A DNA stretch of 61,618 nucleotides, the filler included, from Basidiobolus ranarum (taxonomy: Eukaryota): NCBI GenBank assembly GCA_040143965.1. It is 17 parts of 17 records of this genome, joined end to end, with 100 filler letters (N's around TTAATTAATTAA, not from the genome) between each part and the next. Parts side by side here need not be neighbours in the genome. Positions count along the whole stretch, not along the records: positions 7,295 to 10,837 come from JASJQH010009300.1; 16 more parts are not named here. One strand, given 5' to 3'. This document shows positions 2,332 to 61,618 of the stretch, one piece after another (the first letter of the stretch is position 1; each line of letters starts with the position of its first letter). The translations under genes and the position numbers were made by a program. The notes under the pieces were generated by a model. It was given only the letters and a program-made list of their open reading frames with translations. It did not search any database and had not been told where the DNA came from.

Positions 2332-3240
2332 ATGGCTCAAGCTGAGGATCCTAATGCCAGACGGTCTCAACCGGAACTTGTAGCGACGACAGGGTACGAG
2401 GTTATGGAGGCAGATGAAAACGTTGAAACCGATGCCTATTTGTCGGATGAAACTATCATACTAGATAATTTCGTGACGAAAGTAACTTTGGGTGCTAAAT
2501 CATTAGACAATGTGGAGGTAACGGAGAGGAACAATGTGGTCAAAGTAGATTCAGGGGTCCCATCCGACACATTTAATGTGATTATTCCAATGTCGAAGGG
2601 TACAGAAAACTCCTTCCAAGAGTTGCTACGATCTGTTCAAACATTACAAATGAAAGGCTTCCCAATGAGTATATGGGTCGATGATCGCTTTATATCTTGT
2701 CACCTTACCAGTATGCTAAAAACGATGGGGTTTCAGGAAGCAGAAAGTAATATAACAATGAGAAAGAATATTTCAAGCAATATCCTGCCGTTTGAGACTT
2801 TAAAAGGTACATTGGACATACGACAAGTTATGAGTGCCGTGGACGTTCTAATCTACAGTGATATATTCAAATCATTGTTTGGAGATTCTATTGAATCGAA
2901 AGCAATTGGTGAGTATTTTAACAAAGTTGCTCTGATATTTGATTCCAGCCAAAGTGCTGTCCAAATGTATATTGGCTTTGCCAATGGCAGAGCGGTGTCC
3001 ACTGGTTGCATTGTAGAAGCTGACCATAGTTATGGTATATATGATTTGATTACCAAAGAGAAGGAACGAGGTAAAGGGTATGGAAGTGCAATGTTTCAGT
3101 ACTTACTAAATCAGTTAGATGGGTCTAAACACAAACCATGTATTTTGCAAGCCTCTCCTGATGGGCTAGGAATCTATAAAAAAGCTGGTTTTGAATCAAT
3201 TGGAGAGATGATTGTATTTGAAGCAAAATGTAGACTTTAA
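2332..3240 (+). CDS. GNAT-family N-acetyltransferase, intronless, bacterial-like
   Basis: 302-aa ORF. The C-terminal GNAT fold has the acetyl-CoA motif GIYDLIT..ERGKGYGS and LQASPDGLGIYKKAGF. The N-terminal half contains DSGVPSDTFNVI. Confidence 0.85.
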   Translation: MAQAEDPNARRSQPELVATTGYEVMEADENVETDAYLSDETIILDNFVTKVTLGAKSLDNVEVTERNNVVKVDSGVPSDTFNVIIPMSKGTENSFQELLRSVQTLQMKGFPMSIWVDDRFISCHLTSMLKTMGFQEAESNITMRKNISSNILPFETLKGTLDIRQVMSAVDVLIYSDIFKSLFGDSIESKAIGEYFNKVALIFDSSQSAVQMYIGFANGRAVSTGCIVEADHSYGIYDLITKEKERGKGYGSAMFQYLLNQLDGSKHKPCILQASPDGLGIYKKAGFESIGEMIVFEAKCRL

Positions 3241-3550: not shown

Positions 3551-3650
3551 NNNNNNNNNNNNNNNNNNNNNNNNNNNNNNNNNNNNNNNNNNNNTTAATT
3601 AATTAANNNNNNNNNNNNNNNNNNNNNNNNNNNNNNNNNNNNNNNNNNNN
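3551..3650. other. Artificial assembly linker (N44-TTAATTAATTAA-N44), first of 16
   Basis: Identical 100-nt spacers with stops in all six frames start at 3551, 7195, 10838, 14477, 18112, 21747, 25381, 29010, 32636, 36261, 39886, 43510, 47134, 50757, 54378 and 57999. Contig lengths never increase along the window. Confidence 0.99.
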
Positions 3651-7194: not shown

Positions 7195-7816
7195 NNNNNN
7201 NNNNNNNNNNNNNNNNNNNNNNNNNNNNNNNNNNNNNNTTAATTAATTAANNNNNNNNNNNNNNNNNNNNNNNNNNNNNNNNNNNNNNNNNNNNAGATGA
7301 GTAAAAGCCTACGAAAGCCAGCTCTAAATTTAAAATAACTCCTATTTTTATTGATGTATTTCGAATTGTGAGGGGTTATTTCATAAATTACGAAACTCAA
7401 AGTCAGTGGATTAATCGAAATCCATACTTAGTTTACTAGGGGCAAAACTCAAAACAGGGATGCCACTAAATGCCAAAAGTAAGAAACTTCTTAATAAATA
7501 TCTGTAACCAAGTTGTTTTTTCCAAATGACGATAATTTAAGATTCTTTAAATATAGATATTTTAAATTCGATTTTTAAAATCTTCATTTTATTGGATGAA
7601 TTGAGGAGTTTGAGAAACCATTTCTGATATTGGGGATTTTTTTTTCTTCTTTCCTTGACCAATGAAATTGAATTTCTCACATAGATCATCGAACAATGAA
7701 AAAAGTGAAACTATTTAAACACGGCTTCATCTCTTTGTGTTCCTTACTTCTCCGCTCCATTAAGCGTGTTCATAAGGTATTTAATCAATGTTCGATTTAC
7801 TTCTATCCCCAATCTC

Positions 7817-7893
7817 TTCAAATGATGATCCAAACTCAGACCTGTTCTGAACACACATGTGGACAACATACATTGCCTTTTATTCTGATTTTT
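7817..7893 (+). ncRNA. Box C/D snoRNA, snR56/SNORD25(U25)-like, copy 1
   Basis: C box ATGATGA 7822-7828, guide CAGACCTGTT, D' CTGA 7847-7850, C' ATGTGGA 7857-7863, D CTGA 7885-7888. The guide is complementary to the conserved 18S sequence AACAGGUCUG. Confidence 0.85.
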
Positions 7894-8027
7894 ATGCAAA
7901 TTTTAACCATCATATTGTTATCGAACTGTATCTGACTTTTTCAAATTACTAGACCTTGGGTATATCACTCATCCTTATGGAATACGTATTTGTAAATAAT
8001 GTAAGTAATGTCCCTAGCTATATGTTC

Positions 8028-8114
8028 AAAATTCTCAGTGATGATCAACATTTCAGACCTGTTCTGAGTCCATAATGCGGATAACCTATATTGCCTTTAA
8101 TCTGACGAGAATTT
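8028..8114 (+). ncRNA. Box C/D snoRNA, snR56/SNORD25-like, copy 2
   Basis: C GTGATGA 8038-8044, same guide, D' CTGA 8064-8067, C' ATGCGGA 8075-8081, D CTGA 8102-8105. Terminal stem AAATTCTC/GAGAATTT. Confidence 0.9.
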
Positions 8115-8246
8115 TTTGAACATCATGTCATATTCTTATGAACCCACTCTAATCAATTTCTCTTTCAGATATGAACCTCTTATGATGTATTGACTAGAAG
8201 CGCTCGATTGACTTCGTTGTTGATTAGGTAAATATCATTCTGTAAT

Positions 8247-8336
8247 AGTGCCTTAATGATGATTCAAAACTCAGACCTGTTCCAAGTAAACATATGCGGA
8301 CAAACAAGTTATTGCCTAATGTTTCTGAAAAGCACT
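8247..8336 (+). ncRNA. Box C/D snoRNA, snR56/SNORD25-like, copy 3 (variant D' box CCAA)
   Basis: C ATGATGA 8256-8262, same guide, D' CCAA 8282-8285, C' ATGCGGA 8294-8300, D CTGA 8325-8328. Terminal stem AGTGC/GCACT. Confidence 0.85.
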
Positions 8337-8460
8337 TGAATTGCAAACATTTTAGAGTCTATTCTAACAGTTTATTAGTAATTTCAGATATGAAATGTCG
8401 TGTAAAATAATACCGCAACGATGAGCACAATGTAAGTTAAAATTCATGTTCATAAACCAA

Positions 8461-8546
8461 AACTATTGAAGTGATGATACAAATCTCAGACCTGTTCTGA
8501 ATACACATGTGGACAACATATATTGCCAAATACCTGATTAATAGTT
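8461..8546 (+). ncRNA. Box C/D snoRNA, snR56/SNORD25-like, copy 4
   Basis: C GTGATGA 8471-8477, same guide, D' CTGA 8497-8500, C' ATGTGGA 8507-8513, D CTGA 8534-8537. Terminal stem AACTATT/AATAGTT. Confidence 0.9.
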
Positions 8547-8686
8547 GCACCCTAATTTATAAATGTTCATTCGTTACAACATACTAATTTATTTATTGCT
8601 TACAGGGATAACATATGCTCAGAAGATTATTGTGTATAACATACTCAAATAAAAAAATTGTAATACTATATTTTTATCTTTATTAT

Positions 8687-9860
8687 TTAAAAAATCAAAT
8701 AATTGGTTTTACGTTTGGTGATTAGAGTAGTAGCCAAATGAAATATCAACAAATTTCTAGCTTGTATCGCATCTAGTTCTTTAAAACCATTTTCAAAGAT
8801 AAATTTTCTTCCTGAACAACCTAGCCTTGCTTTCTCGATAATAGTGATCATCAAAATTATGACTTCAAAAGCATCTTGAGACAGTGACAATGGGCATTTG
8901 GTTGCTCCATGATGAGATAGTTTCTCGATTAGGGAATCTGAAATGGAGCCAGTGCTTGCTAAAATTAATCCATCTACGTTTTCTAAAAGTTGTTCGAGTA
9001 TAAAGGTAGACATGTAACAGTCAATAAGACAACGAGCTGGTTGGACAGTACCTCTTGATTTACATGAATCGAAGAGAGCAGGTAAGATATAGAATGGTGA
9101 TAACGAGGAGTTCCTTGGTGTATTTGTCCTACAGGTCCGGTAGGCACTGACTTAAAGGAGACCTGGATGTCGCCTTGGGTAATATATAGAACAGAGTGAA
9201 TATCATTATTGATATAGACCAAAACACGTTTTAGACCACTTCTTCAAAGCAATCTGGAGAAGGATAGAGATATCAGTCATCAGTGAATATTAGCACTAGT
9301 TTAAAAAAACTCCAATCTATCAAGTATACCTGAATGGCTCCTTTGATAGTGGAAAAACCTTCATATCCTAAAATATCAGCTGGTTTCATCGAACCAGTGT
9401 TAACTAAGGATACATCCTTTTCAATTAACCATTTTCTTAGATATAAGTCCAGACAGAAAGCAACTTCTTCTATAATATCAGTTCCTACTACCAAAACAAC
9501 CGAAGAGATATTTGCAGATTGTGAATAGCATCTTTAACTTTAGAAATGGTTTCAAAGGTGAGCTCAGCTCCACTTGAACATCCTAAATCAACTACTATCG
9601 GATTTATACAACCTCTTATACGAGAACTCAAGGATATCAAAAGCTCTAAGGTGTTTATAGACAAGTGCATCTCCCCATTTCCGTTGGTGTTTTGAAGGAT
9701 AGCTTCACCAGTAACTATGACTAGTATACTGAAGAGTCAGTCATATTCTAAAGTAAAAGCGTTGGATAAATTAGAATCATGCGCACCGCTATCAGATATA
9801 CGTTGCCATAGCATTTGAATTTGACTATCAGAAATATGAAATTGTAGAGATTCTATCTAC
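8687..9860 (-). pseudogene. Disrupted, intron-containing class I SAM-dependent methyltransferase-like gene
   Basis: Minus-strand ORF pieces contain IVVDLGCSSG (motif I-like) and, after a frameshift near 9500-9520, VVGTDI. Upstream frames contain stops. Boundaries uncertain. Confidence 0.4.
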
Positions 9861-11279
9861 CCAATCTCTCGGAATATGCACCATTCCAACCTAAATAAAG
9901 ATGCCTTTAACCACTTCCGCATTCAATAAGTATCTGTGTATTGGTTGGAGGTAGGAATAGTATAATATGTAAGCATCACCTGATACTGTAGAATGCTTTT
10001 GCCTGAAAATTGAAGTCATTTAACCTTAACAAAGCCCGACTAATCATGAGATCCATATTCGACCTTCTTTCTTGGTTATCGGTATTCTAATTATGTGATT
10101 CTCTTATTGTTCTTGACAAGAATTCGAAATAGGAACATTCCTGTTGTTTCAGTATGTTTCTTTGTGTTTCGGATATATTAGGTTATTCACTCCTCAAATA
10201 CATCATTTGAGCTTTCCATCTGTCTTAATTAGCGTAGAGTCCAAGATAGTAAATCTCTAGAGAATCAAGCACCCTGAATATTACCAAGTCATGATTCATT
10301 GGTTTACATTTATAGAATTAAAAAGAGTCGATGATTTAGGAGTATCTGCGATAATATTTAATACGGATAATTTCTTTTCTGAAATACCCGTAAATTAAAC
10401 TTGGCAAAACCCCTTGCTACCAATTTAAGATGACAGGTAACGTACTGTTACTTCCATGACCACCCATGTGATGAGATCAAAGAAGCAACTTTCTAACCCT
10501 TGGATCAGAAAATAGTTACCGAGGAATCATCACCAGTACTCAACTTTAGATAGCCACATAGCAACACTGGTCAAATTGATCTTCTTGAAACAAGTACTGC
10601 AACGTTAACATCATACCAAATGAACGAAACCCCACAGAGTCGGTTTATATTATTGGGATATGGTAATTGTACGTAACACTCAGACTAAAGTGCCGGTGTA
10701 CCTGCCTCGATTTTCACATTCCGAAGTATCTTCACATATACCCCTGGTCTAGATGATGTTCCACAACATTTGAAATAGCCTAATACTGATTAGTGAAGAA
10801 AGGTGCATTGCAGTATATTAAAGTTTAAGAAAGTAACNNNNNNNNNNNNNNNNNNNNNNNNNNNNNNNNNNNNNNNNNNNNTTAATTAATTAANNNNNNN
10901 NNNNNNNNNNNNNNNNNNNNNNNNNNNNNNNNNNNNNTATGATATAATTGAACTTGTCTATTGCCTGTTGAAGAAATGATTACAGACATCTTAACCATAC
11001 CTTCTATTAAAGCACAATTTAAATTATCAAGATATAAGTTGGGTTTAAGAGTAATACAAAAAATTAGTTGAGTGAAATGTTAAAGTTGGATTAACAGCAA
11101 CTCTTTATTTGGTAGTTGGTTTATTCATATTATGATTATTTAGCATGCAACTCTACCATTCTAAAACATGTGCTTGTTGCTGAAATTGATATTAATATCA
11201 ATCAGAACATTTTTACCAGGTTTCACTCTTTCCAATTTTCAATATTTTCTCAAAGATCTCCAAGTCAACTAATATTTTC

Positions 11280-12278: not shown

Positions 12279-12720
12279 TCAATATGTAATCACAAAGCCA
12301 AAACTGGCAAGAGATAATGACCATGTTGCTTGATGGCAGTTGGAAACTATTGTTGTACTAAAATCCCAAAGTTTCTTATGATCACAATAAACTGTGATTT
12401 TGTGATTTGCTCCATCTCTGTATTGACACCATTGTTCAAATGCAGCAATGATTGCTAGTAGTTCCTTGTCATAGATGTCATAGTTGATTTCTGTTGCAGA
12501 GAACTTTCTTGAGTAAAAGGCAACAAGGTGCTGTAAGTTGTCTTCACCATACTGTGATGATACTGCCCCAAGAGCAAAGTCAGATGCATCAGGTCCAACA
12601 ATAAATGGCTTTTCTAGCTTGGGGTGTGTCAGGTTTTGTGCTGAGATAAAAGCATTCTTCAAAGTTACAATTGCTTGTTGGCAAGATGGATTCCAGTTAA
12701 ATGGGATTACTATATTATGT
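12279..12720 (-). mobile_element. Ty3/gypsy RT-RNase H fragment
   Basis: PFIVGPDASDFALGAV..VAFYSRKFSATEINYDIYDKELLAIIAAF..W..ITVYCDHK. Confidence 0.9.
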
Positions 12721-13109
12721 TCTTCCCAGGTAACTGCATGGTCAACACCTGAATCATCATTCTTTCAGCTATCTGGTACACAATTAGATGGGTAAGAAAA
12801 CTTATTATTTATCCTTGGTAGGACTTGCTCTCAAACTTTAAGGTTAGATGTTCCAGTTTCTTGCTAATGTTGGATATTTCTACCTCAACATCAACTATTC
12901 TGATATCAGTTAAAGCTTCTTCTGGTCTTGGTGGCTGTTGCTCCCTTCTCCACTGGAGCTTCTTCATAAGTGCTGTGCTCTCATGACTTGCTAGGAGGAC
13001 TTTCATCACACTAGAAAGAAGGAGAATGTCTGAGTTTGATTGTAGGTAGTTTCCTGATCTACTTTGGTCAGTAGATGTTGAGATGTAGCATTCAGTAGGT
13101 AAATAGTAA

Positions 13110-29109: not shown

Positions 29110-32043
29110 AGCCAGTTGCAACTACTCTTTCTTTGTACCTCGCTATGGTTACATCAGCATGGTCTTTGACTTTGTGGACCCATTTGCAACCTATTGGTTT
29201 TCTACCTGATGGTAGAGGCCTGAAAACCCACCATTTATTTTGCAGAAGTGAAGAAAACTCAGTAGACAATGCTTTTTCTACTCATTTTAATTCTAGACAC
29301 TTCAGAGCTTGATCTTGTGTCTGTGGCTTGTCACAGAATGCTGCATAAGAATAAGCATGATGATTGGAAGTGTCCCACCAGTTTCCTAGCCTATTTCTCC
29401 TTCTTGACGATCTTCCAGGTTCTGAATCATCCTCTGATGTAATTGAGACTTGAATTTTGGTTGAATAGGCCCACACACAGCTGGAATTAAGTCAGACACT
29501 TCCTGAATAGTGCTGATTGTGTTTTCTGGATTGAGCACTGTGATTTGAGGAGAAAAATTTGCTTATTCATCAAAAATGACAACTCAGCACTTAATTAACT
29601 TCTGCTTTTTGGTATCAAATAGTCAATATGCCACAGCTCCATCACAGTAACTAAGAAATATGCATTTTCTGCTTTGGGGTTCCAATTTAGAGCTTGCTTC
29701 AGCTGCCATTAGGCAATATGCTGTGCAACCAAAGATCCTGAGATGATCCACACTTGATCATGATCCATATAGGGCTTCAAATGGAGTTGAATCTTTTAGC
29801 AATCTTGTTGGGCATCTTTTTTGATATAGACTGCAGTGGAGACAGTTTAACCCCAATATTGATAATCTTACTTTTGATCATATAACATCAATCTTACCAT
29901 CTCCACTATGGTCCTATTAGCACATTATGCAACTCCATTTTGCTATGGAGTATAAGGTACAGTAGTCAGTTGCCTAATTCCATGTTTTGAACAAAACCTA
30001 GTAAAGTCTTTAGAGCAGTATTCTCCACCATTATTACTCCTTAGTAATCTTATTTTTTGTGCTGAATCTTTCTCTACTATTGCTTAGTAGTGCTTTAATG
30101 TATCTAAGGCTTCAGATTTTAATTTGAGAAAAAATACCCAATTATATCTTTTTTTGTCATCAATATAGGTCACAAAATACCTTTTCCCACCTAGTGAGAC
30201 AGTTTCATGAGCCCACATAGGTCAGAATAAATCAAGGCAAAATTCTGAGTGGATTTATCTCTTCAGAGCTTGAAGACAGCTGTCAATGATGTTTTCCATT
30301 TACTCAACCTTCACACAGATCCAATATAGTGATATTCTTAATTTCAAAGCTGAAACAAGCCAATTTCAGATCATTTGGGTCAGTTTTTGTTCCCTAATGT
30401 GACTTACTCTTCTATTCCACATTTGACATCTTATTTGACTGGTTTTGGCCAAGCTTGCATGCTAAGAATGCAATTTGTCAATTACTAGCTTCTAAAAGTT
30501 TGAGTATTGATCACAGTAGTTAATTTGGTGATATTCTGATCCATGATAGTGCCTCCAGCCTTGCAGAACACAGAATTTAGTCCTTGACCTATTGCTTGGC
30601 TTACTGAGAGTAGTTTCTTGGCTATGTTTGCTACATAAAGCTCATCATCCAATTTTGCTGATGGTGTAGCTGAATTTTGGTCTAAACTGAGCACATCTGT
30701 TACTGTACCAACAGCATGTAATGCATAGTCTTCACCCAAGTAGACTATCCTTGTTTAGATTGTTTTAGAGCTGGAAAACTAATCTGTCTTCTTTGACATA
30801 TGTTGGGAGGCTTCTGAAGCAATGTACCATGTTTCTGAGTCTTCTTTAGTGGTTACTGATAGGGCAGACACAGATAGATGGTCCCTATCAGAGCTTTCTT
30901 GATTTGCTTGTTCCAATTGTAGCTTTTGGGCAAAAAATTCTTTTTCTACAATCTTTGATTCAATGGCCTGGTTTCTTGCAATACTTGCTGATGATTGATT
31001 TCCTATTGAGGGCACCATTATTGAAGCCTCTTGGAATTTTACAGCTCCAAAAAATGCCTGATCTGCATTATTTTGCTGAGAATTGGATGACCTCAATTCC
31101 TCCTTGAGAAGCCTAGCACCAATGTATTCTGTTGTTAATGGCTCTGATCTTGATTCTAGAGCAATTATGAGGTTCCCAAACTTCTCTGCCAGGCTGCCAA
31201 GCAGTGTCATTACTAAGTCATCTTCATTTAGAGGTGCTCCAATGGAGAGCTGATCTGCCTTAGTTTTTATCCAATTTATGTTATTAAGCATAAAATCATC
31301 AGAATTCATCTGAATTGTGAATAGTTTTCACCTAAGAGATATCCTATTAGCCAGACCTTTACTGTCATATAGTCCCTCAAGTGTTTCCCCAGCATTTTGG
31401 ATATTTTTGGCTGATTGTATTTACCTCAATTGAAAGTGTCTGAAATGTAGACAAAGTGTAGAGAGTGCTTTCCTCTGCTTCTTGTGGAAGGCATGAATAG
31501 CTTCTGCTGGTCCCTTTGGCTCTATTTCTTCTCCTGTAACAGATGCCACAAGATCCTTCTCTTATAGCACCATTTGCATCTTGAACTTCCAGAGGTGGAA
31601 GTCTTCACCATTAAACTTCTCTGTGGATGCATGCGCATTGGTAATTGTACTAGTAGACATTTGTTTAATAGCTAGCTTGGGGTTAATAACCTGAAAAAAG
31701 TTTTTAGGCGATTCAAAAGTATTTTGAACAAGATTTAGATTTGAAAATTAGACACTTAGGTGCTATTGAATTGAATATATCCTAGGTATAGCTTACTATG
31801 AAATAGGAATATTGCATGTGCTTATATGATAACAAACATGCCTGTCAAGCATGGGTGAGAAATTGAGATGATTTGCAGAAGTTTTTGAGAAAATAGTGAA
31901 AATTGATAAAAGTGATCTAATTGGTATATCTATCAATTAGAGCAATAAACACATGTTTTTGAATGCAAAAATTGAGTGCAATATAATCAGAATATCAATA
32001 AACTAACTACAAAATTAATAGTTGCTATTTACCTATTTCAACA
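29110..32043 (-). mobile_element. Decayed Ty1/copia element: LTR 31692-32043, PBS, gag-pol up to the start of RT
   Basis: PBS-like GGTTATTAACCC, gag EKFNGEDFHLWKFKMQMVL, protease WYIASEASQHM, RT start LPSGRKPIGCKWV..ARYKERVVA. Confidence 0.85.
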
Positions 32044-44344: not shown

Positions 44345-44676
44345 ACGCCAAGAGCGATGCAACAAAGTATTGAATTGAATGATTTTTTTTTATTTTCTAA
44401 AAATAAACATGTATCACTTGTACAAAAAATGCTAGGAAGTTATTCCATGTTGTTCATGAGTAAGTTGAACATGAAAAGTGAGTGTTTATTGTGCTTTTTT
44501 TTGCAATTTTTGGACGAAATATTACTAACCACGACTGTATATCATCAATCATGTGAAGTCCCTTAAGAATATATGCGCATGGTTTCAACCTTCAAAGCTA
44601 TTTGCACAGATGACACGTGACTAGTTATACATTGATTTTTCAGTTTTGGTTTTCAGTAGCTCCTTCTTCCACATTC

Positions 44677-47133
44677 ATGTCAAAATTGGCTTATTACGAA
44701 AAACTTGCCGAGAATGGAACCAGTTTAACTCCAGAAGTCTTCAATTGGATGATGGGTCTTTATGAAGACGATGTCATTGCAAAGACTTATGTAGCACTTT
44801 CGATTCCGGCAGCCAATGCCTATGGCCAAGGACAATATGATCGTCGTCAGGAAGAAAAAGCACGCCGTCAGGAAGAAGCCCAACTTCTTCGTCTACAACT
44901 CCAAATTACAGAAGCAGACGAAGCAAAGTGGGCGCCACCCAATCTTAATCAGTTACTAACTGGGGTGAATTACAACAACTTAGAATTAGGAACAGACTGG
45001 GAATCATTGAAGTTCCAGGCTGAAGAAACACTTATCAATTCGACCGTGTTCGCAACAACTTTCCCGTTTGTAAATCGAGAATCAGCGTTGCGTCGTCTTG
45101 TTGGCTACATTGCTGAAATGCACTCCTTGCTTGAATATACTGGTAATTCGAACTCTATCACTAGTCAATATTACTCTAATGTTATGAAAGTGGCTCGACT
45201 ACTCACAATAACGGGCGCGCCAGGTATTGGCAAGACAACGTTCTGCCATCGTGCATTGGCTACAATTGTCAACTATCAGAAGCTGACCAACACCCCCTCC
45301 TCTACCTCCGGAAGTATGGAGCTAATGACCTCCACAGCTTCTGATTCAAGCATACCTACAAGTCCAATAGCGTCCACATCTATAGCTGTTTCATCACCCT
45401 CGCCTTCTAAAGCGGATGGTTCAAGCAAAATAATTCAACCGGTAAGTGACGAGGATTCTTCGTTGTTCAAATCTTTTCGCTCGCTACCGGATTCCCTCCG
45501 AGATGCTCTCCAATATGGCCACAGAAAAGGTTTGTCATTATATGTCGACATGAGTGATTTGGTATCTATATTGCCGAGTGGTAATATTGCTATTCCTTTA
45601 CTCCATGCATTTTTAAAGTCCCGCAAAGCATCACCGACATTGTTACACAACATCTGTGAGGGTGCGAAGACTAATCTGCGGAATCTCACTACAACAATGG
45701 TATTTAAACATATCAGGCAGACAATGGGCATAAAAAGGAAAGCAGTTCTGCTCCTTTTCGTTGATGAAACCAATTCTATCCTGAGCTCTGACGTGGGTAC
45801 CCAGTTTTTGTCCAACATGATGTTAGCGTATCGTCAAAGCATGGTTGAGGAACGTGAAACATTAATCTTCATGCCGATCTTTGTTGGTACGCGGCAAGAA
45901 AAATTACTAAGCACTGTGAGACTGAGTGGAGCGCAAAAATATGTTATCCCCATCCCACTCCTCCAGTACACTCACCTCTGCGAAATCTGTCGTCTCCTTA
46001 TCACAAAGGCTCTCCCTGATATACATGAACTTGAAATTCACAAACAGGTAAAAAATCGCCTTCTTCTTGCCGGTGGTCATATTCGAATATTTGTGGAGCT
46101 GTTATTTCGGTTAGGAAAAACCAAAATTTCTGGAGATTTCTCATGGCGACAGTTGTACTCTAGCTTGATTGGCAAAACACCTATCAGTTTAATTGACCGT
46201 GCTGTTGATGATGTTGCCAAAGACTTCTATGACGGAACCCACACAGACGTGTTGAAAATCATGCCTCGGCTCGCAGCGTACCAGGTTTTGCAGAAGCCTG
46301 TTTTCTTGGACACGGTCGTGGAAATACCGGGAGATATGGATGGTTCAAGAAGGCCGGGTGTACGAATTTCAGCACTTGTTGAAAATGGTTTTATTGCACT
46401 GGATTTACATGCTGATAAGTACTTTGTTGATGTGCCATTTTTGATTTTCAAGGCGGCTCTTGAAAAGCACACTATATCACGTCCATATGTACTGGCCTCG
46501 GTTTTAACGCATTTATCATCCGATGAAAACGAAAGAAACGACATGGACATTATACTGTTAAAGTTAGAAATGCTTCAGTTGCTTGATTGTACAAGTTTTC
46601 AGCTTGGCGACATCTTTCCACCTGAATCTTTCACCCATATCAAAGAAATGCAGCGTATTGAACAAAAATATTGCATTCCGCAGAATTTCATACGTAATCG
46701 ATTAGAGACAGGATTTGATTTAGACTCGCTTCGGGAATTAGTCAAGCAAAACCTCAACTGCAGGTTGAAAGAAGAGGTTACTGTAGCATTCATCAACTAT
46801 CCAAAAGCGTCCGGTCCAGACTCTGTTTTATTTGTAGAACCATTAAACTCGCCATCTGACATAGCCGTGAATAAGAAACGAAAGACATCAACTGATGGTC
46901 AATTGACAGCAATATATGTGCAATCTAAAGGCAGTCCCACCAGTCGCTCCAAAGAAGAAGGTTCCTATATTCTCAGCCCTTCAGGCTTTAAGATAGAGCG
47001 GAACAAGGCGAATCTTAAGGATTTGGACCTTTTCGTGTACATAACTGACAGAAAAACCAGACCAACCGACATTCAAGCTTTGTCTGACTCTGATCTTATG
47101 GTTGATTTTAGCAGTGCAAGCTTGTTTCTGGGG
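44677..47133 (+). CDS. Crinkler/RHS-type protein: P-loop NTPase plus C-terminal PD-(D/E)xK-like nuclease; 3' end missing
   Basis: Intronless ORF of more than 800 aa, first ATG at 44677. Walker A GAPGIGKT preceded by PFVNRE, Walker B LLLFVDE, AGGHIR motif. C-terminal FINYPKASGPD...IYVQSK and an NLS-like KKRK. Confidence 0.75.
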
Positions 47134-47398
47134 NNNNNNNNNNNNNNNNNNNNNNNNNNNNNNNNNNNNNNNNNNNNTTAATTAATTAANNNNNNNNNNN
47201 NNNNNNNNNNNNNNNNNNNNNNNNNNNNNNNNNCTATAGCTTCCCTAACAAGATGATGCCCAATAAATATGTGCTTTGTTCTAAAATGAAATGTAGGGTT
47301 TTTAGCTATTTAAATTCAACTTTGATTATGTTGAAATACAGTATAGCAAATTTTTGCTTATGTACTAAGTCTGTCAATAACTTCCTTAACCACATAGT

Positions 47399-55293: not shown

Positions 55294-57768
55294 GAAGAAA
55301 ACAATGCAAAACTATCTGATACCAAAGTTTTACTCCAGGTTAAAAAATAACAGAGTGTCTTTAACACAGTTTGTCTTAATGTTAAAGACAAATTGCTAAA
55401 GCTATGTTCAAGAGCCAAAACTGCCAAGAAGGTATGGAAAACCTTGGAAGACACCTACCAAACAAGTTCTGCTACCAACAAGATATTTCTAAGAAGACTA
55501 TTCATTGATTTAAAGATGAAGCCATGAGAAGACATTAAATCACTGATTAATACAGGCACTATTTTAGTGGAAGAAATGGAATGCATTGGAGTACCAACTA
55601 CTGATCAAGAATTCATAGTTACAGTTCTGAATAGCATGCCACACAAGTTTCAGAGTCTAGTAATGGCTGCAGAAGCAAGAACCGAAAATTTTACCTTGAA
55701 TTATGTGTTTGGCAGACTTCTGAATGAAGATTTGCACAAATTGGGATCCAACCAAAAGAATGAAGAAAATGCTGTAATAGGCTACATGAAACTGCCTATA
55801 AAGGTCAAAAGCAATTTAAGTAGAAAAGTAACACATTGTGTGATTACTGTAAAAGAACTGGCCATTTAAGCAAAGATTGCTTTACAAGAATTGCAAAAGA
55901 AGAAAAATGTACTGAATCTGAAAATGTGGTTATAACAGAAGATCACTTGTTCAAATTTGCTCTATCTATGACTATCAACAAGGATTCTCAGATGTGGCAT
56001 ATTGATTCTGGAGCTTCCCAACATTTCACAAATGAAAAAGTTGGTTTGTGAAATATGAAGAAATCCCAATTAGATAGGTTTTCATGGGAGATGACTGCAC
56101 ATTAGATGCTATTAGAATGGGAACAATTCAAGTCAATTTAACTGGAGCTTCTGAAGAGAAAGTATATACCTTTAAGGGTATACTACATGTTCCAGATATT
56201 GCCAAGAACTTAATATCTGTATGCAAGGCCACCTCAGAAAGGCCAAAATTCAATTTTGATAAGTCAGGATGCAACATCACCGATCAAAATGGGAAATATT
56301 TAGCTTCAGGAGAAAAGGATCAAAACTCATACAAACTTACATATAATCCAAGAGGTTAATGTGTAAATATAAGTTATTCCAATCAAGAAACTATTCAATT
56401 ATGGCATAAGAGATTTGGCCATATTGGATTTGATTATTTGTGCAAAAAGATCAAAAATTGCCTAATTTTTAGAATTCAAATTAACCCCCCCAACCAAAAT
56501 GGAAATTTGTGAGGGTTGTATATATGGAAAGTAAGCCAAGCAACCATTCAAGAGCTCTGGTTCAATCATATCTGTCAAAAAATTGGATCTAATTCTTTCA
56601 GATGTGCTTGGACCTATGCAAAATTTATCTTTAGGTCAAAAAAGATATTTAATCACATTTATTACTGATTATACAGGATACACTTGGGTTTACTTTATGG
56701 AAAGAAAAGAAGAAGCTTTCTCTATCATTAGAGATTTTAAAACACTTATGGAGACTGAAACAGGAACTAAAATTACAAAAGTTCGCACTGATAACAGTGG
56801 AGAATATCCTTCAACACTATTTAAGCACTTTTGCAAAGTTCATCGAATTAAGCAATAAACTATTGCTCCCTATTCACCTCAACAAAATGGAGTTGCTGAA
56901 AGAGCTAACAGGACTATAATAGAAATGGCAAGATCCATGATAAATGCACAAAATTTATCTCAGAACTTTTGGGTGGAATCTGTTGCCACAGCTGTATATC
57001 TGAAAAATAAGATATTTACTAGATGTCTGTCTTACTCTACACCATATCAAGCTTGGTTTGGAGTGAAACCTGATGTAAAACATTTGAGGATCTTTGGATG
57101 CATTGCTTATGTCAAAATTATGACCAAAAATGGGTCTAAACTTGATCCAAAAAGTAAGAAATGCATGTTTCTGGGTTATTGTACTCAAACTAAGGCCTAC
57201 AGAATCTATGATACCAAAATCTCCAAGTTAATCAAATCCAGGGATGTTTTGTTAAATGAAAATGAAAAATTTTCACCCAAAATGACCTCAGATGGTGATG
57301 AAAATCAATTTTCTCCCGATTCAAACATTCATATTCATACAAATGAAAACAATGAAGAAAGTAGCATTCCTGTGGACCCTTCAACCCAAATTTTGCCTAC
57401 TAAAGTGCCCAATACAATGCCAGAAGTTGTAGTACATTTATCCCAAACCAGGAGATCAAAACGGATCAGAAATAGCCCTGATTACTATATCAATGAGACC
57501 AAAAGTTGGGCCTATGCCTGCACAGATCAAACACATGAACCCCAGACTGTAAAAGAGGCTCTAAATGGCCCTCACACAAAATTTTGGAGATCTGCAATGG
57601 CTGATGATTTCCAGGCTTTGATTGATAATCAAACATGGATTATAACCAACTTACCTGATGATAGATGATCAATTGGCTGGTGTTTAAAGTTAAATACAGC
57701 TCTGATGAAATATAGAAAGCTACAAGGCTAGACTGGTAGTCAAAGGCTATTCCCAAGCACCAGGAATA
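55294..57768 (+). mobile_element. Ty1/copia gag-pol, inactivated by stops and frameshifts
   Basis: Zinc knuckle CDYCKRTGHLSKDC, protease WHIDSGASQH, GAG-pre-integrase LWHKRFGH, integrase SDVLGP..RTDNSGEY..PQQNGVAERANRT, RT start YKARLVVKG. Confidence 0.93.
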
Positions 57769-60196: not shown

Positions 60197-61618
60197 ATGT
60201 TGGTCCTCCACGAAACCCCCGCTGGTTACGCCCTATTCAAGCTCTTGGATGACGGCAAGATCGAGAAACCAGATGATTTGCACAAGGAGTTCGAGACCGC
60301 CGAGAAGGCCAACCAAACGTGAGTATTTTTCGTGTCTTTTACTCTTACTTCACTTTAACTTACAGGATATATTTTCATATTAGCATCAAATTGAAGGCTT
60401 TCCAAAAGTTTGAGAACACCATCGAAGCCTTGTCCGCTGCCACTGCCATCGTCGAAGGCAAACTCGACAAAACCTTGAAGAAATTCTTGAGTGACGAAAT
60501 TAGTGAAAAAGAGATGAAGAAGGAGAGTTTGATCGTAGCCGACTCTAAGCTTGGTAAGTCTGATCCAGGTTGATATTGTTGGATTATTGGCGGTTTCTAA
60601 CCTTTTATTTTCAGGTGGTTCCATCTCCAAGAAGCTTGGCATCAAGGTTATGTCTGATTCTACTGTGAATGAGCTTTACCGTGGTATTCGTAGCCAGCTT
60701 TCTTCCCTTCTTACTGGTATTCCTCACTCTGATATGAACGCTATGGCTCTTGGTCTTTCCCACTCCCTTTCTCGTTATAAGCTTAAGTTCTCTCCCGATA
60801 AGGTGGATACTATGATTGTTCAAGCTATTGCTTTACTTGATGATTTGGACAAAGAGTTGAACACTTATGCTATGCGTGCCAAGGAATGGTATGGATGGCA
60901 TTTCCCTGAAATGGCCAAGATTATCGTTGATAACTTGGCTTTTGCCCGTGTCGTCAAGATCATGGGTTTCCGTACCAACTGCTCCAAGACTGATCTCTCC
61001 ACCATCCTCCCCGAGGAACTCGAGAAAGAACTCAAGGATGCCGCTGAAATCTCTATGGGTACCGAGATTTCCGATGAGGATATCAACAACATTACTCATT
61101 TATGCGAACAAGTTATCTCCATCACTGAATATCGTACTCAATTATATGAATACCTTAAGAATCGTATGGTTGCTATCGCTCCTAACTTGACTACCCTTGT
61201 TGGTGAACTTGTCGGTGCTCGCTTGATCGCTCATGCCGGTTCTCTCATGAACCTCGCCAAGCATCCTGCCTCTACTGTCCAGATCCTTGGTGCTGAAAAG
61301 GCTCTATTCAGAGCTCTTAAGACCAAGCATGACACTCCCAAGTACGGTTTGATCTATCACGCTTCCTTGATTGGCCAAGCTGGTCCCAAGATGAAGGGTA
61401 AGATTGCTCGTATGCTTGCTACCAAGGCTTCCATCTCTATCCGTGTCGATGCTCTCGGTGACAAGGATACTGCTGAAGTTGGTGTCGAAAACCGTGCTAA
61501 GGTTGAGGCTCGTCTTCGTCAATTGGAAGGTCGTTTCGCCGCCGGTGCTAGCAGAACCCCCAATAAGACTCCTAAGAGTCAGAAGAAGTTCGAATTCAAT
61601 GGTAACACCAGTGCTTAC
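60197..61618 (+). CDS. NOP58: Nucleolar protein 58 (box C/D snoRNP core); exons 60197-60318, 60384-60553, 60615->61618
   Basis: [15 protein letters not shown]...[53 protein letters not shown]...[34 protein letters not shown]. Two GT-AG introns. Confidence 0.97.

Follow-up and report, generated by a model that had tools for sequence, protein, structure and literature searches.

A 61,618-nt stretch of DNA from Basidiobolus ranarum (hereafter the window, meaning the whole stretch that was analysed) was found to carry four paralogous small nucleolar RNAs (snoRNAs) of the box C/D class, arranged in tandem on the + strand of one contig. Their assignment to the snR56/U25 family is well supported by the sequence, as is their predicted target, the G of 18S ribosomal RNA (rRNA) helix 34 that is known as Gm1428 in yeast and Gm1490 in human. 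Each snoRNA likely lies in its own spliceosomal intron, because the splice signals fit and relatives in metagenomes share the layout. Taken as a whole, the explanation that we consider probable is a short host gene transcribed by RNA polymerase II, which would hold four intronic snR56 paralogues directed at a single 18S target and would have originated by tandem duplication.

The window consisted of 17 pieces of ~3.5 kb each, with lengths falling steadily, joined by 16 spacers (N44-TTAATTAATTAA-N44) at 3551-3650, 7195-7294, 10838-10937 and then every ~3.64 kb; its G+C content was ~35%. Features on separate pieces are not genomic neighbours, and the genomic context of the snoRNA array is confined to the piece at 7295-10837.

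When the whole window was searched with the Rfam covariance models, copy 1 was the sole match at gathering thresholds (55.3 bits, compared with a gathering score of 54 bits for RF01188, snR56, which shares clan CL00049 with SNORD25). A second pass with an E-value threshold (E<=0.05) returned snR56 as the best family for all four copies (E-values of 8e-5 to 4e-3 for the whole window; scores in Table 1) and no further snoRNA family in the window, except for the weaker, overlapping U25 model. A first-pass annotation of this DNA had described four copies of one unit at about 216-nt spacing and had proposed comparison with the snR56 and SNORD25 models; the snR56 matches fell at that place, and the spacing from one box C start to the next was 216, 218 and 215 nt. 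Further, a sequence model derived from these units matched the four copies alone within the window (67-75 bits).

The individual boxes agreed with this assignment. All four copies possessed a box C of AUGAUGA or GUGAUGA and a box D of CUGA, in line with the class definition RUGAUGA/CUGA, and the span from box C to box D was 66, 67, 72 and 66 nt in copies 1 to 4. In the alignment, box C, TCAGACCTGTTC, C' (ATG-GGA-AA), ATTGCC and box D were invariant in the four copies, and the spacers between them were variable. The distinct terminal stems that the first pass had noted in copies 2-4 were confirmed; they measured 9, 5 and 9 bp and were unrelated to one another in sequence. In copy 1, a 7-bp external stem within intron 1, present in both the minimum-energy and centroid folds, may substitute for the absent terminal stem. 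Flanking intronic stems are reported to aid assembly where a terminal stem is absent (PMC10557570).

The 18S target was assessed against the published fungal 18S primer NS7, which is a conserved sequence. In each of the four copies, the 10 nt directly 5' of D' formed 10 Watson-Crick pairs with AACAGGUCUG, and guide position 5 lay opposite the first G of AACAGGUCUG, that of AACAGG. In copy 2, the 10 pairs were followed by one mismatch and then by 4 further pairs. Under the D'+5 rule, the fifth position is opposite the modified nucleotide (PMC10557570). Yeast snR56 is reported to guide Gm1428 in helix 34 of 18S rRNA, a site above the A-site tRNA, the loss of which raises -1 frameshifting 1.2-fold (PMC2794176; PMC4344503). 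The equivalent sites are given as human Gm1490 and Arabidopsis Gm1431 (PMC2794176; PMC4344503; PMC2780460) and Neurospora Gm1423, and the table for N. crassa treats snR56, snoR19 and U25 as equivalent (PMC2780460). The pairing with NS7 and the published site assignment thus upheld the first-pass proposal that the D'+5 position points to the first G of the Gm1428/Gm1490 site.

The ATTGCC element formed 7-10 pairs with the 18S bases just 5' of the target, (A)GGCAAU(AAC), and the longest accessory pairing was that of copy 3 (10 bp). ATTGCC was also considered as a box D guide and was rejected, since 6-8 nt separate it from box D and these nucleotides are different in each of the four copies. On the same grounds, the element reads as an accessory pairing element for neighbouring 18S bases rather than as a second guide, a role that the first-pass annotation, which listed ATTGCC, had not recognised. 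In yeast, snR56 is listed among the snoRNAs with flanking rRNA complementarity, and for other snoRNAs such flanking pairing boosted methylation up to five-fold (PMC3116282).

We compared the four exon-intron units with one another in an alignment. The snoRNA bodies were 66-86% identical among the units, whereas identity was 37-61% in the 5' part of the intron, 40-50% in the 3' part and 35-59% in the exons; we judge the flank values to be about the level that the aligner gives for unrelated AT-rich DNA. Because the bodies are conserved to this degree and the flanks and exons are not (35-61%), the pattern indicates purifying selection on every copy. An assembly artefact or simple repeat was considered and rejected, as copies that are 66-86% identical have unique flanks. 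In a FastTree tree of 68 distinct ~70-nt snoRNA sequences, copies 1 and 4 were the only ones of the four to group together; the tree was read without support values and was uninformative as to the order of duplication.

The same comparison bears on an alternative that partly overlaps with the explanation we favour, namely that copy 3, copy 1 or both are decaying duplicates that form no stable small nucleolar ribonucleoproteins (snoRNPs). Copy 3 has the lowest score (45.8 bits), CCAA at the D' position and the shortest stem (5 bp), and copy 1 has no terminal stem, as decay would predict. However, no copy has lost box C, box D, ATTGCC or any part of the guide, even though the flanks are randomised, related upstream copies in metagenomes also bear a non-consensus D' (CCGA), and copy 1 has the 7-bp external stem. 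Further, highly divergent C'/D' motifs are reported to be active in yeast (PMC3116282). Decay of one or both copies is thus a minority possibility, and functional maintenance of all four is the better account of the conservation.

We then consider the splice signals. The first-pass annotation had placed each copy in its own GT-AG intron with box D 59-68 nt before the 3' splice site, and signals were read at those distances in all four units (Table 1). The donor lay 29-46 nt upstream of box C in all four units, the branch site 39-50 nt and the acceptor 59-68 nt downstream of box D, and the branch motifs were of the fungal kind and lay 16-20 nt before the acceptor in all four introns. In intron 3, a CAG lies 3 nt past the branch A, probably too near for use. 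An optimal position of ~50 nt before the branch point was reportedly given for intronic snoRNAs by Hirose and Steitz in 2001; the papers that we searched contained no statement of such an optimum. The background frequency of the geometry was estimated with a loose donor 26-50 nt upstream and a branch/acceptor 45-74 nt downstream at 55,854 positions per strand: it occurred at 1.6% of background positions and at four of the four copies, a comparison to be read knowing that the distance windows were chosen post hoc, after the data had been seen, and that the four units share ancestry and are not four independent trials. A chance origin of the four-copy observation is excluded by the Rfam E-values (8e-5 to 4e-3) and by the presence of this geometry at every copy.

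Outside the snoRNA bodies, short islands of identity fell exactly at the predicted junctions. Exons 3 and 4 had been said to open alike, and TTTCAG/ATATGAA (the slash marks the junction) was indeed present at both 8163-8175 and 8382-8394. Further, identical islands coincided with the junctions in units 2 and 4 (AATGTAAGT) and in units 2 and 3 (TTTCAGATATGAA). The predicted spliced RNA of ~250 nt had a longest ATG open reading frame (ORF) of 19 aa, a value subject to the guessed outer ends and to a 5' extent that may reach further, and the unspliced array region had no ATG ORF of more than 38 aa.

These features also bear on the possibility that the array is a polycistronic cluster, matured by RNase III-type cuts and exonucleases without splicing, in which the splice-like signals would be unused. 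Tandem snoRNAs on one strand with ~150-nt spacers resemble the polycistrons described for plants and yeast (PMC2780460), and extended stems flank copies 2 and 4. Against this stand the fixed distances of donor, branch and acceptor in four of four units, the conserved islands lying exactly on the predicted junctions within otherwise random flanks, and the related loci with the same one-per-intron geometry; in addition, the distance from snoRNA to 3' splice site is reported to matter for intronic processing (PMC2780460). Maturation from an unspliced polycistron is therefore highly improbable, and release of the snoRNAs from introns is much the better reading.

To place the array among its relatives, we used 59 metagenome loci, several of them mutual duplicates, from contigs scanned with a pattern of box C, guide and ATTGCC; copies per locus were counted with an expression for box C plus guide. 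Two copies, 197-320 nt apart, were present in 27 of the 59 loci, one copy in 32, and more than two in none. Splice signals were read in 18 of the 27 two-copy loci (11 + 7), and in every one of these each copy lay between a donor and a branch/acceptor, with a short exon of ~50-90 nt between the copies. A search of related genomes for the same array had been proposed in the first pass; among these loci, two-copy versions were found in 27 of the 59, with one copy per intron in the 18 that were read, and no locus had four copies. Upstream copies in the related pairs carried CCGA at D'.

The likeness between the Basidiobolus array and these loci was confined to the snoRNA bodies, as blastn and tblastx comparisons with the 59 loci detected no synteny or exon similarity. 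A short exon motif common to some related loci (TGTATTGA/GTATATCAC) was left unused, being too short to tell from chance. With a model built from the four copies, the best metagenome matches scored no more than 46 bits, which points to the absence of a same-species copy from that collection. In seven G+C-richer two-copy loci (L003, L054, L001, L015, L039, L008 and L052), the upstream copy shared only box C and the guide with the array and had a different 3' half. The upstream copy in these seven loci was also seen to have another box D guide, ACATGCATGGCTTT before CTGA, and appears to be a double-guide paralogue beside a single-guide one.

The metagenome loci further revealed a candidate type of host. 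The snoRNAs came after a calcipressin coding region in 37 of the 59 loci (tblastn with the L016 protein); all 37 matches were on the snoRNA strand and ended 37-313 nt before the first box C. In locus L016, the calcipressin ORF lies at 967-1761 (Pfam PF04847, 104.9 bits) and the snoRNAs at 1802 and 2001, with the stop codon 6 nt before the donor of the first snoRNA intron; L042 was alike (5-6 nt). The snoRNAs of these two loci thus seem to sit in 3'-untranslated-region (3'-UTR) introns of the calcipressin gene. As for the other 22 loci, 8 had less than 400 nt upstream and were uninformative, and 14 had at least 400 nt and no calcipressin match.

This linkage is the basis of another alternative, in which the snoRNAs are real but belong to a protein-coding gene, within introns of its 3' UTR or in an extension downstream of it; the coding exons of that gene would lie beyond the start of the contig. 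Because 37 of 59 related loci place the snoRNAs after a calcipressin coding region, the host of the array could extend upstream. The proximity of the stop codon to the first donor in L016 and L042 favours such a host, as does the limited sequence available, since the contig offers only 528 nt ahead of the first box C. A candidate extra intron was also observed upstream of the array, at 7479-7683 on the + strand (a GTAAGA at 7479 that may serve as donor, then a stretch rich in T and C, TTGAC and a TAG that ends near 7683). Use of this intron would put the start of the host transcript upstream of the place that the TATA-like motif indicates.

On the other side, calcipressin was not found by tblastn anywhere in the window, and a calcipressin profile built from 31 related sequences had no match on the contig of the array (best E 3.2 among 265 reading-frame pieces). 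The longest stop-to-stop frame on the + strand of 7295-7776 was 44 aa and bore no family signal. The gap in the linked loci never exceeded 313 nt; since 528 nt are available upstream and contain no calcipressin, the Basidiobolus array seems to depart from the linked pattern, as do the 14 loci with at least 400 nt upstream and no calcipressin. Further, the TATA-like motif lies 60 nt before the first donor. A protein-coding host is thus unlikely, and a dedicated non-coding host is plausible. The first-pass annotation had gone further in proposing a dedicated gene that amplifies one guide fourfold: the four snR56 paralogues were confirmed, but the dedicated non-coding host was not established, given the start of the contig ~450 nt upstream and the calcipressin linkage in 37 of the 59 loci.

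Several other points tell against the explanation that we favour. Only copy 1 attains the gathering score; copies 2 and 4 are just under it (53.1 and 52.9 bits) and copy 3 is at 45.8 bits. The D' box of copy 3 is degenerate (CCAA), and copy 1 is without a terminal stem adjoining its boxes. The fold of intron 1 that carries the 7-bp external stem is not significant (z = +0.67), and the fold energies of the snoRNAs are not beyond those of shuffles (z -0.84 to +0.90) and were not counted as support. Non-significant fold z-scores are usual for C/D snoRNAs. The 18S pairing was assessed only against the conserved primer NS7. Intron 1 has a weak donor (GTATTT), and the outer ends of exons 1 and 5 (7745 and 8672) are guesses. 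To these are added the post hoc windows and shared ancestry behind the 1.6% comparison. In addition, the contig starts ~450 nt upstream of the array and related loci show the calcipressin linkage, so the host may be something other than an independent non-coding gene.

Under the explanation that we favour, an RNA polymerase II transcript of ~7745-8670 on the + strand would comprise five small exons and four introns of 160-176 nt, with one snR56/U25 paralogue carried per intron, and the host would have no coding exons upstream of the contig. The spliced lariats would be debranched and trimmed by exonucleases to a snoRNP-protected core of 66-72 nt. All four RNAs would present the same 10-nt D' guide, and through it fibrillarin would add a 2'-O-methyl group to the first G of AACAGGUCUG in helix 34 of 18S rRNA, in the decoding centre. 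Helix 34 of this organism is expected to read GGCAAUAACAGGUCUG, with GGCAAU preceding AACAGGUCUG; AUUGCC and its neighbours would pair with 18S 5' of the target and stabilise the weak 10-bp guide duplex. The spliced exons would most likely be a non-coding by-product. The array itself would have arisen by tandem duplication of an exon-intron unit, enlarging the one- or two-copy arrangement common in other fungi.

The last piece of the window contains a fragment of Nop58, a core box C/D snoRNP protein (60551-61618, + strand; Pfam Nop domain, 293.9 bits). The fragment shared 95% identity with Nop58 of Basidiobolus meristosporus, compared with 83% for the next named match and 70-80% for matches from chytrids, the Mortierella group and Kickxellales, which places the assembly near that species but apart from it. 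A TrkH transporter fragment on the first piece was uninformative for placement, its best match in a homology search being 28% identical. Its presence in the same assembly shows that the machinery exists, and nothing more.

The class, D' guide and target G in 18S helix 34 are those of snR56 of S. cerevisiae, SNORD25 (U25) of human, snoR19 of A. thaliana and CD19 and CD41 of N. crassa, and the Basidiobolus copies share a UAUUGCC element with the Rfam snR56 consensus. In yeast, snR56 has a gene of its own; in human, U25 is housed in a UHG/SNHG1 intron, in the company of unrelated snoRNAs. In N. crassa, 45 of the 55 C/D snoRNAs are reported to be intronic, including two snR56 homologues (PMC2780460). 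Basidiobolus has four tandem copies, compared with one in yeast and two, on different chromosomes, in N. crassa, and its guide duplex has 10 contiguous pairs, compared with the 12-13 listed for N. crassa (PMC2780460).

The predicted host would resemble the UHG-like hosts (clusters I-V of N. crassa; UHG/SNHG1 and GAS5 of vertebrates) in its short exons without a meaningful ORF, its one C/D snoRNA per intron and the set distance to the 3' splice site (PMC2780460). The non-coding hosts of N. crassa are described as having ORFs of 159-267 bp only, with splicing confirmed by reverse transcription PCR (PMC2780460), whereas splicing in Basidiobolus is predicted. In addition, UHG-like hosts carry mostly different snoRNA families, in contrast to the Basidiobolus array, which has the same guide in all four introns.

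A closer parallel in this respect is SNORD115 and SNORD116, in which an exon-intron unit of a non-coding host has been amplified with one snoRNA family, one copy per intron. These are orphan or non-rRNA guides, imprinted and specific to eutherians. They form homogeneous one-per-intron arrays (PMC12429941) of tens of copies, unlike the four copies of a canonical rRNA guide in Basidiobolus. In chicken and other vertebrates, new snoRNA paralogues are reported to come mainly from tandem duplication into a neighbouring intron of the same host (PMC2653536). The metagenome pairs share with the array the same guide, ATTGCC in the downstream copy, ~200-nt spacing and one copy per GT-AG intron, but they have at most two copies and calcipressin in 37 of the 59 loci, in contrast to four copies and no calcipressin on the contig in Basidiobolus.

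Because one-per-intron non-coding hosts in fungi and duplication into adjacent introns are already known, and two-copy versions of this locus are common, the array is an ordinary, tidy local expansion of a well-known gene layout and not a new kind of system, and it leaves the understanding of how snoRNAs work unchanged. Its particulars are the four copies of one canonical rRNA guide, apparently outside a calcipressin host. Our literature search found no snoRNA paper for the Basidiobolus lineage and no paper on the calcipressin-snR56 linkage. The array adds an annotated snoRNA locus for this lineage, offers a clean example of four paralogues that appear to be kept under selection, and suggests that snoRNA hosts of early-diverging fungi, like those of vertebrates, for which the process is well documented, can grow by duplication of an exon-intron unit. 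The calcipressin-snR56 linkage in 37 of 59 environmental fungal loci may have wider use.

A more speculative scenario, which we hold to be doubtful, is that the snR56/U25 guide left a calcipressin 3'-UTR host, of a type widespread among other fungi, and was amplified fourfold in a dedicated non-coding gene, in the manner of SNORD115/116 and independently of them. Since the copies now differ from one another in D' box, in guide extension and in the length of their accessory pairing (7-10 bp), they could then set or tune the level of methylation of a nucleotide in the decoding centre and would not be simply redundant.

Table 1. Features of the snoRNA array and its surroundings in the window. Exons, introns and the promoter element are predictions from the sequence; the slash marks an exon-intron junction.
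Feature	Position	Strand	Details
TATA-like motif TATTTAAA	7712..7719	+	~60 nt before first donor; T/C-rich tract and CCAAT just upstream; possible promoter element, weak
Predicted exon 1	7745..7776	+	5' end guessed; 3' end from donor AAG/GTATTT, 46 nt before box C
Predicted intron 1 (176 nt)	7777..7952	+	GTATTT ... TCTGAC ... TAG; box D to branch A 47 nt, to acceptor 64 nt
External 7-bp stem around copy 1	7790..7926	+	GTTCGAT 7790-7796 with ATCGAAC 7920-7926; in minimum-energy and centroid folds of intron 1
snoRNA copy 1	7818..7890	+	box C 7822-7828; guide CAGACCTGTT 7837-7846; D' CTGA 7847-7850; ATTGCC 7872-7877; box D 7885-7888; Rfam 55.3 bits
Predicted exon 2 (48 nt)	7953..8000	+	from sequence reading
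Predicted intron 2 (168 nt)	8001..8168	+	GTAAGT ... CTCTAAT ... TTTCAG; box D to branch A 47 nt, to acceptor 63 nt
snoRNA copy 2	8034..8107	+	terminal stem 8028-8036/8107-8115 (9 bp); box D 8102-8105; Rfam 53.1 bits
Predicted exon 3 (59 nt)	8169..8227	+	starts ATATGAA
Predicted intron 3 (160 nt)	8228..8387	+	GTAAAT ... TTCTAAC ... TTTCAG; box D to branch A 39 nt, to acceptor 59 nt
snoRNA copy 3, most diverged	8252..8330	+	D' CCAA; terminal stem 8247-8251/8332-8336 (5 bp); box D 8325-8328; Rfam 45.8 bits
Predicted exon 4 (44 nt)	8388..8431	+	starts ATATGAA
Predicted intron 4 (174 nt)	8432..8605	+	GTAAGT ... ACTAAT ... TTACAG; box D to branch A 50 nt, to acceptor 68 nt
snoRNA copy 4	8467..8539	+	terminal stem 8461-8469/8538-8546 (9 bp including one G-U); box D 8534-8537; Rfam 52.9 bits
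Predicted last exon	8606..8672	+	AATAAA 8648-8653; 3' end guessed
Convergent multi-exon gene, asparaginase N-terminal domain	8687..9736	-	ORF pieces; Pfam PF00710 27.7 bits at 9276-9533; bounds the array on the right, not part of it

Other features were observed on separate pieces of the window. An 854-aa open frame at 44617-47181 (+ strand) runs into a spacer and had a weak P-loop match only (AAA_22, 27.3 bits). Retrotransposon fragments were present at 12279-12764 (- strand), 30779-31309 (- strand) and 56925-57668 (+ strand), with reverse transcriptase RNase H domains, a copia-type gag and a retroviral-polymerase SH3-like domain. Finally, an intact ORF at 2332-3240 (+ strand) encodes a GNAT acetyltransferase of 302 aa, the named relatives of which are from Bacillus-type bacteria (45% identity in Heyndrickxia, 38% in Bacillus sp.). 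The same contig also bears a fragment of a eukaryote-type TrkH transporter (1-1248, - strand), and the GNAT ORF could reflect either gene transfer from bacteria or a chimeric contig.

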